Of a stretch of 64,000 nucleotides of DNA, positions 8,253 through 62,931 are shown piece by piece. Made by a program: the position numbers and the translations under genes. Under the pieces are notes generated by a model. It was not told the origin of the DNA, ran no database searches, and worked only from the letters and a program-made list of their open reading frames with translations. This DNA comes from a phage, in sequence record PZ179883.1, one strand, 5' to 3'. The first letter of the stretch is position 1. Every line of letters starts with the position of its first letter.

Positions 8253-8442
8253 AAGTTTTCCATGGTAAAGGCAGTTTAGTTTTCTTTACTGTTAGTTCAA
8301 CATCAGGATTCTTTTCTCTTAATTTAAGACATTCCTCCCAAGCCCTAATTTCACTAGTGAATACACAAAATTGCCCATTACTAGTACCAACTAAACCGCT
8401 ATTTACAATAACAATAGCCCAAGTTTCATGATGCAAAGCCAT
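8245..8442 (-). CDS. hypothetical protein
   Basis: 65-aa ORF. Confidence 0.4.
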   Translation of the reverse strand: MALHHETWAIVIVNSGLVGTSNGQFCVFTSEIRAWEECLKLREKNPDVELTVKKTKLPLPWKTYE

Positions 8443-9347
8443 TAAAAGTCACCATGGTTAACTTGCCAGCATTCAACACCAATACGACGCCACATTTCAA
8501 CGACTTGGTTTCGGTCATCAATAGCTAATTTCACATCAAAATGTGGTGCGATGTGGTTCCAGAAAATTTCTTCTTTAACTACATCATCTTTACGGGTATC
8601 ACCTTGTTCGCGTTGACATTGCATAACTAATGGAACGCCAGCAACATCCTCAACCCATTTACGGGTCATACGATAATATTTCGTTGGGTCTTCTTTAGTA
8701 CCACATTCACGACCACTTACTACGATAATCTGATAACCCATATTGGCATACATCTTAGACAGTTCAACTACCATTGGGTTGATGACATCAGTATCACACT
8801 TCTCAAGGTCATAAGGACCGCGGCCGTCCATTTTTGCTAATGTGCCATCAACATCAAAAATAACTGCTTTTGGTTTACCAGGAGTCCCTTTGTATACCGG
8901 AAGACCGAGATACTCTCGCATGCTTTTATACATTGAGCGTAAAACATCAATCGGTACTGCTTTAGTTCCACGTTTTGAGTTACGTTTAACTAGCTCAGTC
9001 CAAGGAACATCAAACACTTTATATTCAACTTTCCAGCCGTATTCTTTGGCAAAAGTTTCCCATGCTAGGCGACGTTTAGGATTCAAGTTAGTGTCTGAAA
9101 TAATTACTCCCTTGACAGAATCACCGCCATACAAAACACTTTTAGCTGTATCAAACTGCATACCAGTTACGATACCTTCTTTCTTTTTGGTATACTTGTA
9201 CTCGTCACGTTCTTCATGACCCATGATGGATTGACGATAATCATCACGATTGATATTATAAAATCCAGGATTTTTAGCAATAAATTCACGAGCCCAAGTG
9301 CTCTTACCTGAACCAGGACAGCCAATAGTTAAAATAATCTTTTTCAT
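8442..9347 (-). CDS. pseT: polynucleotide 5'-kinase/3'-phosphatase
   Basis: N-terminal P-loop GCPGSGKST kinase domain plus C-terminal HAD-type phosphatase DVDGT motif; 301 aa from the second Met, as in T4 PNK. Confidence 0.9.
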
Positions 9348-9667
9348 CATTTAATTCCTAAGAAAACTTCAAGAATACGAATATTATGCTCACGTCGCTC
9401 TTTATATAATTCAGCTGTTGATTGATTCACCGATTTGCTCTGAACATTAGATGAAATAAATTTTATCATGTGATTTTTAAGCTGATACATATCAAGTCCA
9501 CGAGCTTTTGCTTCTTTTCGTAAAGCTTTACCAGCATCATCTAAAGCTTTCGCAGGGTCTTCATCATTTAATACTATTCCACGGTTCAAATCCATGTATA
9601 CTGCACCATGGCATGCATCAATGTAACGATCTGAGCATTCAATATAACGTTCTAGCAGAGTTTTCAT
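9347..9667 (-). CDS. hypothetical protein
   Basis: 106-aa ORF. Confidence 0.5.
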
Positions 9668-9894
9668 TTATTTTTCTCAACCAATGATTGAATATAATCA
9701 TGCAGATCTTTAGATGCTTTACCCCATTTATTTTGGTATTCATTTTTAAGATTAGCCCGAGATTGAGCTAATAAAACATCATTAGTTGGAGGTAAAGATT
9801 CTAATCGTTGAATCTGACGTCCATAAATCATTGCAGCCATCTCTGATTCATAAATCAATCCTTTGAGATGTTCAAATTGATGCCATGAAATCAT
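9664..9894 (-). CDS. hypothetical protein
   Basis: 76-aa ORF. Confidence 0.45.
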   Translation of the reverse strand: MISWHQFEHLKGLIYESEMAAMIYGRQIQRLESLPPTNDVLLAQSRANLKNEYQNKWGKASKDLHDYIQSLVEKNK

Positions 9895-10190
9895 TTACAT
9901 TTATCCTCTTTTAGCTCTTGACGATAATAACATATCATAGTTTTTTGGTCATGTACATATCGTTTTACATCATTAAGCCAAATACGAAATTCCTGGGAAT
10001 CTTCAAATGGCATACCGACCCAAGCTTTACCATCAATAACTTTAACTTGCCAAGATAGTTTAGCTTCATCATATGACTTTATTTGCACAGGCCAATTAGG
10101 ATGAACTGTTTCTTTCTTTACTTCTAGAGGCTTTGTCGAACAACCAACTAGAAGACCAATAGATAATATTACTGCTGATAGTTTAATCAT
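9891..10190 (-). CDS. putative lipoprotein
   Basis: Signal peptide followed by lipobox-like LVGC (MIKLSAVILSIGLLVGCS). Confidence 0.5.
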   Translation of the reverse strand: MIKLSAVILSIGLLVGCSTKPLEVKKETVHPNWPVQIKSYDEAKLSWQVKVIDGKAWVGMPFEDSQEFRIWLNDVKRYVHDQKTMICYYRQELKEDKCK

Positions 10191-10540
10191 TTAGAAAGGT
10201 CCTGGATGTCTTCTGCGAACTTGTTGAAGGAGTTATTGATTTGTTTTTCAACCAATCCTGGCTTATGAGCCACCACATCCGCCTTCTTTGCATCTTTGCG
10301 CAGTTTTTCATTTTCACGCTCAATAGCAGCAATTGCCTCACGATTTTTATTATTCATCGCATCAATATAATTATACTGAATTCGCAAATTATCTAATGCT
10401 AAAGCGTTTTCATTGGCCGTTTTTGTAATTTCAGTAACCGATGTTTCTAATCTTTCTACCTTATTTTTTAAAATAATAGATGTTCCGCCAAATGCTATTA
10501 CAAGTAATAGCAATCCAGCTGTAAAATTACTTACATGCAT
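10187..10540 (-). CDS. membrane-anchored coiled-coil protein
   Basis: N-terminal hydrophobic helix then charged heptad-like sequence. Confidence 0.45.
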   Translation of the reverse strand: MHVSNFTAGLLLLVIAFGGTSIILKNKVERLETSVTEITKTANENALALDNLRIQYNYIDAMNNKNREAIAAIERENEKLRKDAKKADVVAHKPGLVEKQINNSFNKFAEDIQDLSK

Positions 10541-11034
10541 AAAGTTTTAATAACCTCTACAATATCGTCTTGAGAAAGACCGTTAATTAAAATATGATGT
10601 TCAGCTGGAGATTTAGAAATTTTAAAGCATGCCTCAACATCTTCTGCCATATCCGATGCGCTACGATTTGGATTGCTAATTCCAAGACGATGTTTTCCCG
10701 TCAAAGGATTAACGATGATGTAGCATTTACAGCTATTAATGTGAACATTAGGTTGAGTCTGATTAATGAATACTTCGCAATCATATTTCGCAAGCTGATT
10801 TTCTAAAAAGACTTTCATCTCCTCAACCGCATCAGGAAGCATATCACGGGCTTGCTCAAGACGACGATTTCGATATTCTTTAATGGTCGTTTTCCGCTTG
10901 ACTTGCTTAGCTAAATCTTTCTTAAGATCGGTGATATATCCAACTCGACGATTTCCTTTAAATACAGAAATCCCATCTGTAGTATCACCATATGCTTCAA
11001 CGACCATTTCAGTAGTAATAAGCTGTAAATCCAT
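10531..11034 (-). CDS. alc: Alc, host transcription terminator for dC-containing DNA
   Basis: 167 aa from the second Met (MDLQLITTEMVVEAYGD...) matches T4 Alc; adjacent to rnlA as in T4. Confidence 0.85.
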   Translation of the reverse strand: MDLQLITTEMVVEAYGDTTDGISVFKGNRRVGYITDLKKDLAKQVKRKTTIKEYRNRRLEQARDMLPDAVEEMKVFLENQLAKYDCEVFINQTQPNVHINSCKCYIIVNPLTGKHRLGISNPNRSASDMAEDVEACFKISKSPAEHHILINGLSQDDIVEVIKTLCM

Positions 11035-11097
11035 CATAAAGCCCTCATGTTATGTCAGTAAGTCTACTATAACACAACACGAGGGACTTGTAAACAG

Positions 11098-61765: not shown

Positions 61766-61766
61766 A

Positions 61767-62123
61767 TTAACCTCTATTCATAAAAGCATTAAAAATTTGG
61801 TCATCAATAGATGGAATAGCAACCTTTTCGGCATCATTTAGCAAATCATTAATTTCATCAGATAGCATAACACATGTGCCTTTATTTCCTGTAATTGTTA
61901 CTGCACAATTACGAACGTTTTCTTTATCAAATTTTAGGTTAATATTTTCGTAGTGAAAATCCTTTAATGCCGAGTATATCTTTAAAATGAAATTGTCTTT
62001 TACTACAATAAACCCAACTTCACTATTAAAACGTGGTTCATGGAAACTGTAATAAACCTTTTCATCTATGAAATCGTATGAAATTTTTTCCATTTTTAAA
62101 TATGAAAATTCAGAACTATACAT
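61767..62123 (-). CDS. hypothetical protein (61.2 position)
   Basis: 118-aa ORF. Confidence 0.45.
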   Translation of the reverse strand: MYSSEFSYLKMEKISYDFIDEKVYYSFHEPRFNSEVGFIVVKDNFILKIYSALKDFHYENINLKFDKENVRNCAVTITGNKGTCVMLSDEINDLLNDAEKVAIPSIDDQIFNAFMNRG

Positions 62124-62135
62124 ATTAACCTCTAA

Positions 62136-62429
62136 TTACTCACCTACCACTTCAGCGATGATATTTTTATTATTAAAGTTTTTATCGCAATACAGAACAT
62201 AATTATACTGCATTACACCACCAGACTTAAGCTGTTTTTGCACTTCAGCTTTCATTTCGGGGCGATCGCGCTCAACGATATTCATAATATCTGCTTCAAT
62301 TTGAGTTTCAACTTCAGTCTGATCTGCGGTCATAGACCATTCACATAAATCTTTATCATATCCTGCCATAGCAGGCTGAGCAGCACAAGAAGACAAAGTA
62401 AAAATTGTAGCAAAAATAAATTTTTTCAT
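62136..62429 (-). CDS. sp: Spackle periplasmic protein (inhibitor of gp5 lysozyme, superinfection exclusion)
   Basis: 97-aa ORF with signal peptide MKKFIFATIFTLSSCAAQPAMA; matches T4 Sp. Confidence 0.82.
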   Translation of the reverse strand: MKKFIFATIFTLSSCAAQPAMAGYDKDLCEWSMTADQTEVETQIEADIMNIVERDRPEMKAEVQKQLKSGGVMQYNYVLYCDKNFNNKNIIAEVVGE

Positions 62430-62489
62430 GATAATCTCCTCAGTAGTTTATGTTTATATAGTATCTCAATTTCCAACAAAAGTAAACAG

Positions 62490-62747
62490 CTATTTTAAAA
62501 CTTCTGCATAATCACATGTTACAAACTGTTTCTCTAACTTGACGATTTTACGAAAATACCTTTTACACTGACGAATCTGCCTCTTCGTAGGACGTACAGC
62601 AAACTTAATAAATTCCACTCGACCAAATGGAGGACTTTCTTCTGCTGGAATATCTAGCACCAATTCCCACGTATCTGCAATAAGTGCTTTGAATTGAGTA
62701 TTTTTCCTGACGTTATACGGAGTAGGTTTAAATAAAACAATATGCAT
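62490..62747 (-). CDS. hypothetical protein (61.4 position)
   Basis: 85-aa ORF. Confidence 0.45.
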   Translation of the reverse strand: MHIVLFKPTPYNVRKNTQFKALIADTWELVLDIPAEESPPFGRVEFIKFAVRPTKRQIRQCKRYFRKIVKLEKQFVTCDYAEVLK

Positions 62748-62748
62748 A

Positions 62749-62931
62749 TTATCCTCGGCAATCTACTTCACATACTTTCTTGTCATCAATGAAAGCTTTA
62801 ACTAATGCTTTATTAACTTCAGCATATTGAGTAGTAGCCCATTGAACGTCATCTTTCATCATTGTGGTTTCTTTAGTAAACATGCTTTCATTCTTAAACC
62901 ACCCCATAAAAACTACCTTTACCAATTCCAT
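62749..62931 (-). CDS. dmd: Dmd antitoxin (inhibitor of host RnlA/LsoA toxins)
   Basis: 60-aa ORF MELVKVVFMGWFKNESMFTKE... matches T4 Dmd in length and sequence. Confidence 0.82.
   Translation of the reverse strand: MELVKVVFMGWFKNESMFTKETTMMKDDVQWATTQYAEVNKALVKAFIDDKKVCEVDCRG

Follow-up and report, generated by a model that had tools for sequence, protein, structure and literature searches.

Known T4 conflict genes and a nuclease-like reading frame next to dam in the early region of a T4-like phage

Do the counter-defence genes found along one stretch of a T4-like phage form a set of their own, or are they simply the genes that a relative of T4 carries in those places? We asked this question of a stretch of 64,000 nucleotides from phage sequence record PZ179883.1, which is called the window below. 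A preliminary description had recognized stp, pseT, rnlA, dmd, arn, modA and modB between positions 8442 and 62931 and had described them as a 'full set' of genes with which the phage counters RNA-targeting systems of the host. It had also suggested that small open reading frames (ORFs) beside these genes are places to look for further anti-defence functions. Our results point to a plainer answer. The range is very probably an ordinary early-gene region of a Tequatrovirus, with intact orthologues of well-studied T4 conflict genes that would act independently of one another. Two other ORFs, one linked to the methyltransferase gene dam and one coupled to pseT, are leads and not findings.

The window was compared with known phages in three overlapping pieces of 20-25 kb. 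By megablast, the pieces matched hundreds of T4-like (Tequatrovirus) genomes. The closest isolates were 96.6-97.5% identical at the nucleotide level and differed for each piece: Yersinia phage ZN18 and the Escherichia phages OES_C-2 and ECO07P5. Because the best relative changes from piece to piece, the window is a segment of a mosaic T-even genome with no exact record match in the searched collection. With T4 (NC_000866) as the reference, the translations of 112 of its genes were searched against the window by tblastn. Altogether, 103 T4 proteins aligned, and in the order of T4: the series opens with gene 30 at the left end and closes with dmd at 62.9 kb. The right end, after dmd, holds a gene 41-like helicase ORF. 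Every early gene is on the minus strand; the plus strand carries tail-fibre genes 34-37 and the holin gene t. An Rfam scan of the whole window (1-64000) at gathering thresholds gave no family, not even for the td intron region that carries I-TevI; there is no involvement of a known structured RNA.

All seven named genes were found as full-length matches to T4 on the minus strand, with 95-100% identity. None contains an internal stop, each has the length of its T4 counterpart, and the identities are far above chance. For PseT, Rnl1, Arn, Stp and Dmd, the scores of the Pfam matches also lay well beyond the gathering cut-offs. Orthology, intactness and the retention of catalytic motifs were thus directly demonstrated here, and nothing apparent in the sequence contradicts orthology. 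The preliminary description had named a failure to align with the T4 reference proteins as the result that would overturn its assignments; when the alignments were made, every assignment held. Its positions for stp and dmd were exactly those of the ORFs including their stop codons, and its range starts, at 8442, on the final base of the stop codon of pseT. The T4 mechanisms that it cited (Stp acting on PrrC with repair by PseT and Rnl1, Dmd against RnlA and LsoA, and Arn against McrBC) were also correct.

In the tRNA-repair pathway, PseT aligned over 301 of 301 amino acids with 95.3% identity (tblastn), and its Pfam matches to HAD_PNKP (E = 5e-59) and AAA_33 (E = 2e-23) were above the cut-offs. 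It has the two domains of T4 Pnkp, an N-terminal P-loop kinase domain and a C-terminal HAD-type phosphatase domain. The kinase P-loop (GxxGxGKS/T type), D35, R38, R126 and the phosphatase motif DVDGT (DxDxT) are identical to those of T4, and all substitutions in PseT lie outside the checked catalytic motifs. Rnl1, the product of rnlA, is 98.4% identical to its T4 counterpart and matched Pfam RNA_lig_T4_1 and T4_Rnl1_C, so that both the nucleotidyltransferase domain with Lys99 and the Rnl1-specific C-terminal domain for tRNA specificity are present. Its K99 (TKEDG; KxDG motif), E159, K240 and K242 are the same as in T4. Stp has 26 of 26 residues in common with T4 (E = 6e-16 by tblastn), covers positions 1-26 of the 26 in Pfam Nuclease_act (E = 2e-21) and, as in T4, is flanked by ac and ndd; we assigned it to the Stp family. 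Stp is 100% conserved whereas its neighbours are 93-96% identical, which fits continued selection. In summary of the comparison with the T4 pathway, the three proteins have 95-100% identity, equal lengths and the same catalytic motifs, and their genes have the same flanks (ac-stp-ndd, cd.5-pseT and alc-rnlA-denA). The difference is an ORF of 106 amino acids between pseT.1 and pseT, which T4 does not have.

Stp is a peptide aimed at the restriction enzyme EcoprrI, and it thereby switches PrrC on; it is no counter-measure to PrrC. If the pathway runs as it does in T4, Stp would inhibit the type Ic restriction enzyme EcoprrI and so release the latent anticodon nuclease PrrC. PrrC would cut tRNA-Lys 5′ of the wobble base and leave 2′,3′-cyclic phosphate and 5′-OH ends. 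PseT would then heal these ends with its 3′ phosphatase and 5′ kinase, and Rnl1 would seal them. By analogy with T4, the three proteins of this phage presumably interact with EcoprrI-PrrC in the same way.

At the other end of the range, Dmd shares 59 of 60 residues (98.3%) with T4 Dmd. It matched Pfam Dmd (E = 2e-45) and, in a sequence search, PDB entry 5hy3_B, 'Antitoxin Dmd' (E = 1e-36). It is placed in the family by its sequence match over 60 amino acids to T4 Dmd, a protein that has been solved in complex with the toxin LsoA. Directly downstream of dmd, we identified the orthologue of T4 gp61.4, with 84 of 85 residues as in T4. This protein was renamed TifA when its inhibition of ToxN was demonstrated, and the dmd-tifA-adfA region was called an 'anti-TA island' (PMC9391042). 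Relative to the T4 island (dmd-tifA-sp-adfA), dmd, tifA and sp are 97-99% identical and have kept their order. As in T4, Dmd would bind RnlA and LsoA and block these RNase toxins when their labile antitoxins have decayed, and TifA would likewise block ToxN.

The adfA locus itself differs. T4 AdfA has 208 amino acids, and the same locus here has an ORF of 118. Of Pfam AdfA, this ORF covers no more than the C-terminal half (positions 113-211 of the 211 in the profile, E = 2e-8). It is 35% identical to residues 109-208 of T4 gp61.2, and the last 14 residues are common to both. His164 of AdfA is needed for the neutralisation of DarT1. In our alignment, a Cys stands against a T4 His that we counted at position 165 and took to be the His164 of the paper. 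We found the ORF in 333 phage records, and its identity to the T2 allele is 94%; T2 was described by the LeRoux group as being without adfA. We considered the ORF as a candidate AdfA and rejected it, as it has neither the full length (about 208-211 amino acids) nor the critical His. Because of the half-profile match, the Cys in place of His and the T2-type allele, it was not filed as AdfA.

Arn, ModA and ModB were all of full length, with motifs intact and no structural difference seen from their T4 counterparts. Arn is 96.7% identical to T4 Arn and belongs to its family (Pfam DM_Arn, E = 1e-53; PDB 3wx4_A, E = 1e-55). In T4 fashion, it would block McrBC as a DNA mimic. ModA is 97.5% identical, with WRG (R72), SAS and EQEVMIP unchanged. 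ModB is 95.7% identical, with YR73-G74 and EQEWMIP unchanged and its substitutions elsewhere. Both have the R-S-ExE type of ADP-ribosyltransferase motif, and both matched phrog_832, which is labelled 'RNA polymerase ADP-ribosylase' in PHROGs; neither matched a Pfam family at E ≤ 0.001. From what is known of T4, ModA and ModB would ADP-ribosylate the alpha subunit of RNA polymerase and translation factors, mainly in host takeover. A part in counter-defence is possible for ModA, on recent and indirect grounds. The only evidence of this kind that we found is a 2025 preprint, according to which T4 and Bas37 depend on DNA glucosylation and on ADP-ribosylation of host proteins to evade Mokosh type I. 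The direct evidence there concerns Alt of T4, and the ModA orthologue of Bas37 is just labelled on a screening plot.

The word 'full' could not be kept for the set, as the window holds other known conflict genes that had gone unnamed (tifA, adfN, rIIA and rIIB), and Alt falls outside it. Gene 30.3, or adfN, encodes a protein that is 97.4% identical to T4 gp30.3 over 152 of 152 amino acids, with no premature stop (Pfam Phage_30_3, E = 8e-70). In the paper that described the function of AdfN, the RB69 allele, truncated 15 residues early, was inactive (PMC11257639). AdfN would add an anti-DarT1 function, and rIIA and rIIB an anti-RexAB function. The role of rII against RexAB was re-confirmed in the HIDEN-SEQ preprint, which also gives rIIAB and Dmd as conditionally essential in T4. 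Judged by T4 order, alt would lie beyond the left end of the window, which falls in gene 30. Its T4 neighbour alt.1 had no tblastn match in the window; alt itself was not among the queries. The isolate therefore seems to retain the PrrC-repair, anti-RnlA/LsoA, anti-ToxN, anti-McrBC, anti-DarT1 (AdfN) and anti-Rex repertoire. This counter-defence content is already known T4 biology, and its value here is that of correct annotation.

The claim that the set is directed against RNA-targeting systems held in part. Repair by PseT and Rnl1 and the action of Dmd agree with it. Stp as a counter-measure does not, nor do Arn, which opposes a DNA-targeting enzyme, and ModA and ModB, which serve mainly host takeover. 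A second explanation is that the listed genes are a coherent, co-selected module against RNA-based defence, the neighbours of which are enriched for new anti-defence genes. Such a module might be seen in dmd, tifA and the adfA locus, which lie within about 1.2 kb and have the name of an island in the literature, and in the extra ORF that is translationally coupled into the pseT operon. However, pseT and rnlA lie at 8.4-12.2 kb, arn at 34.6 kb, stp at 39.3 kb, modA and modB at 54-55 kb and dmd at 62.7 kb. Genes of replication, nucleotide metabolism and tail fibres intervene between them, in exact T4 order. They act on unlike targets (RNA, DNA and the transcription machinery of the host), and the ORF next to pseT has no informative family or fold. 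We regard a co-selected module as unlikely. As the named genes are spread over 54 kb, and the window covers a third of a genome of T4 type with the gene order of T4, they are not a cluster or an island. The only true local grouping is dmd-tifA-sp with the adfA locus.

Several points weigh against the reading of the range as an ordinary T4-type region with its conflict genes at work. What the genes do in this particular phage is deduced from T4 biology and may differ. Substitutions relative to T4 were found in PseT (14), ModB (nine) and Dmd (one, I22T), and the adfA locus is without a canonical AdfA. The changes in PseT and ModB, together with the truncated-looking, divergent allele at the AdfA locus, could also be taken to mean that some genes are drifting or re-purposed and no longer counter-defences. 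PseT and Rnl1 would then be kept just for the DNA 3′-phosphatase activity and for tail-fibre attachment. It agrees with this explanation that hosts of the prr type are rare. A second role of Rnl1, in tail-fibre attachment, is given in the T4 record (NC_000866). However, every checked catalytic residue is intact, every ORF has kept its full T4 length, and Stp has not changed at all beside neighbours that have. Drift or re-purposing is thus highly improbable in our judgement, and we return to intact, independently acting orthologues of T4 genes as the preferred reading. The positions of these genes and of the other ORFs discussed here are collected in Table 1.

Table 1. Conflict genes and associated ORFs in the window
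Feature	Description	Length (amino acids)	Position	Strand	Remark
30.3 (adfN)	NADAR-type anti-DarT1 factor	152	2354..2812	-	outside the range of the preliminary description
pseT	polynucleotide 5′-kinase/3′-phosphatase (Pnkp)	301	8442..9347	-	tblastn match 8445-9347
ORF between pseT.1 and pseT	absent from T4	106	9347..9667	-	phrog_2364, unknown function
rnlA (gene 63)	RNA ligase 1	374	11098..12222	-	tblastn match 11101-12222
arn	DNA-mimic McrBC inhibitor	92	34604..34882	-	tblastn match 34607-34882
stp	peptide (anti-EcoprrI, PrrC activator)	26	39302..39382	-	tblastn match 39305-39382
rIIB and rIIA	counter RexAB of lambda lysogens		42005..45132	-	99.4% and 98.1% identical to T4
modA	ADP-ribosyltransferase	200	54265..54867	-	tblastn match 54268-54867
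modB	ADP-ribosyltransferase	207	54864..55487	-	tblastn match 54867-55487
dam	GATC N6-adenine methyltransferase	259	58935..59714	-	97.7% identical to T4 Dam
Nuclease-like ORF	PD-(D/E)xK nuclease-like	186	59714..60274	-	stop overlaps dam start (TAATG)
ORF at adfA (61.2) locus	T2-type ORF	118	61767..62123	-	partial Pfam AdfA match
tifA (61.4)	inhibitor of ToxN RNase toxin	85	62490..62747	-	T4 gp61.4 orthologue
dmd (61.5)	antitoxin-like inhibitor of RnlA/LsoA	60	62749..62931	-	tblastn match 62752-62931

The suggestion that small ORFs beside these genes may be anti-defence candidates was reasonable, and it is already the view of the literature, as seen in the anti-TA island and in a transposon screen of T4 and Bas37. 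The HIDEN-SEQ preprint describes saturating transposon mutagenesis of T4 and Bas37 on hosts that carry defence systems, which is in effect the mutant screen that the preliminary description had proposed. None of the new anti-defence genes named in its results section (nrdC.1, bas37_0203 and bas37_0260) is among the genes of the window.

Which ORFs of the window, then, are not simply those of T4? By comparison with T4, ten ORFs are missing there or very divergent. Pfam was silent on seven of the ten. PHROGs gave a family for all ten, and the best family was of no known function for eight. The one nearest to a conflict gene is the 106-amino-acid ORF beside pseT. In T4, pseT and pseT.1 abut directly, without an intervening ORF. 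Overlaps of the ATGA type at both ends of the ORF suggest that it is translationally coupled. It occurs in 704 phage records, and the annotations given there with the match were 'hypothetical protein' and the names of neighbouring genes. Its homologues in a collection of 5.8 billion proteins, mostly from phage records, carried only names such as 'hypothetical' or 'uncharacterized'. An AlphaFold2 model gave a confident four-helix bundle, with a predicted local distance difference test score (pLDDT) of 87.9. A Foldseek search with this model gave no significant PDB fold match, only generic helical bundles at E ≥ 0.9. The ORF might add a new accessory factor to the tRNA-repair or anti-nuclease pathway, a weaker possibility than the pairing with Dam considered below.

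Three accessory ORFs, all on the minus strand (7184-7711, 47554-47925 and 49476-50021), were not found in T4 or are divergent there. All three had weak matches to phrog_622 in PHROGs. The first two also had weak matches to phrog_3710 and to families annotated 'goF mRNA metabolism modulator', and the third has a MotB-like C-terminus. We considered a family of GoF-like paralogues for these ORFs and dropped it, as the support from pairwise BLAST was marginal.

The other lead lies next to dam. Directly upstream of dam is an ORF whose conserved residues and predicted structure resemble those of a PD-(D/E)xK nuclease. It is coupled to dam in translation, by the overlap of its stop codon with the start of dam (TAATG). 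T4 lacks window positions 59802-60342, a deletion of 541 bp, and just the last ~88 bp of the ORF remain there. The ORF was found in 164 phage records, including T2, and the annotated matches were labelled 'hypothetical protein'. Among 184 phage records that have the dam region, 149 have both the ORF and dam. The other records seem to have the same deletion as T4: in each of the five partial matches listed, the alignment begins at query base 1, and in four it ends at base 867.

Residues E23, D72 and E85-x-K87 (E85-I-K87 in the protein of the window) are invariant in seven homologues with 49-70% identity. In an AlphaFold2 model (pLDDT 80.7), these putative catalytic residues lie on helix 15-33 and on strands 67-77 and 80-88. 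The modelled fold would thus have the alpha-beta-beta-beta-alpha-beta core and the E...D...(D/E)xK residues of a PD-(D/E)xK nuclease. Many of the top PDB matches from Foldseek were PD-(D/E)xK nucleases (R2 element protein, Bax1, Can2, McrC and Mus81), with TM-scores of only about 0.4, and the BFVD matches included a few proteins named 'restriction endonuclease'. Five of seven family members had sub-threshold matches to Pfam DpnII (PF04556) over the catalytic core, the best with E = 8e-5. Membership of the DpnII family was rejected for the ORF of the window, as it scored 16.8 bits against a gathering cut-off of 23. A PDB sequence search with the profile of the nuclease family gave no match at E ≤ 10. 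An exhaustive hidden Markov model search of 1.84 billion representatives returned only 11 proteins, with no clear relatives among bacterial or cellular restriction enzymes, and the two more distant members among these (P0054 and P0056) had no Pfam DpnII match. For these last two reasons, we do not call the ORF a member of the DpnII family.

The link with a methylase gene was seen beyond the T-even phages. In Klebsiella phage KPV15, a homologue with 43% identity immediately precedes a gene for a DNA adenine methylase, and the pair has other neighbours than here, with the rII genes on one side and a topoisomerase gene on the other. Among five metagenome contigs examined, four (L004-L007) have homologues with 55-63% identity that abut a gene for a D12-class methylase; in the fifth, the short contig L008, the gene downstream of the nuclease homologue was unclassifiable. 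A Dam-type methylase gene therefore adjoins the nuclease homologue in every context with an identifiable neighbour. This linkage, as an observation, may be new: we found no description of the ORF or of a T-even dam-linked nuclease in the literature, which is absence of evidence only, since REBASE was outside the search.

These features recall the GATC restriction-modification systems of the DpnII/MboI type, which likewise couple an ORF of predicted PD-(D/E)xK fold to a gene for a Dam-class (D12) methylase, the D12 family being taken from the metagenome homologues. They differ in that the ORF has 186 amino acids, against the 278 positions of the Pfam profile, and in that the nuclease gene precedes the methylase gene, on a lytic phage with modified cytosines. 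It is conceivable, although we hold it to be somewhat doubtful, that the ORF encodes an active PD-(D/E)xK endonuclease that pairs with the phage Dam as a restriction-modification-like cassette of GATC type. Such a cassette might serve to attack unmethylated DNA that co-infects the cell, or it might be a selfish, addictive module. If this were true, the 'orphan' Dam of T4, a long-standing puzzle, would be what the 541-bp deletion of the nuclease gene left of the cassette. Dam methylation in T-even phages would then have an origin and a rationale, and the phage would be an example of a virulent phage with its own restriction-modification-like module.

Some further differences from T4 were observed. 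The large subunit of topoisomerase is encoded by a single unsplit ORF of 605 amino acids (45401-47218, minus strand). The split of T4 into genes 39 and 60, mobA and 60.1 are absent from the window; gene 60 itself was not queried. The T4 genes for the homing endonucleases I-TevIII, mobE, segG and segF are absent as well (12713-13882, 17218-17952, 21494-21598 and 57934-58359). In the absence of I-TevIII, nrdB is an uninterrupted ORF of 389 amino acids. In the place that segF has in T4, between soc and gene 56, there is an ORF of 66 amino acids (58156-58356; phrog_5782). The td region carries I-TevI, with 100% identity to T4. In the distal tail-fibre region (29576-33513, plus strand), T4 gp37 matched over the first 66 residues only and T4 gp38 had no match, which suggests a different receptor-binding module.

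Finally, the interval between gene 61 and the nuclease-like ORF holds another ORF of 66 amino acids, on the opposite strand (60374-60574, plus strand; phrog_2024), and its product is hydrophobic. T4 DNA is 95% conserved over this region, but the ORF is not listed in the RefSeq feature table of T4. The ORF has a strong Shine-Dalgarno sequence, AAGGAGGA.

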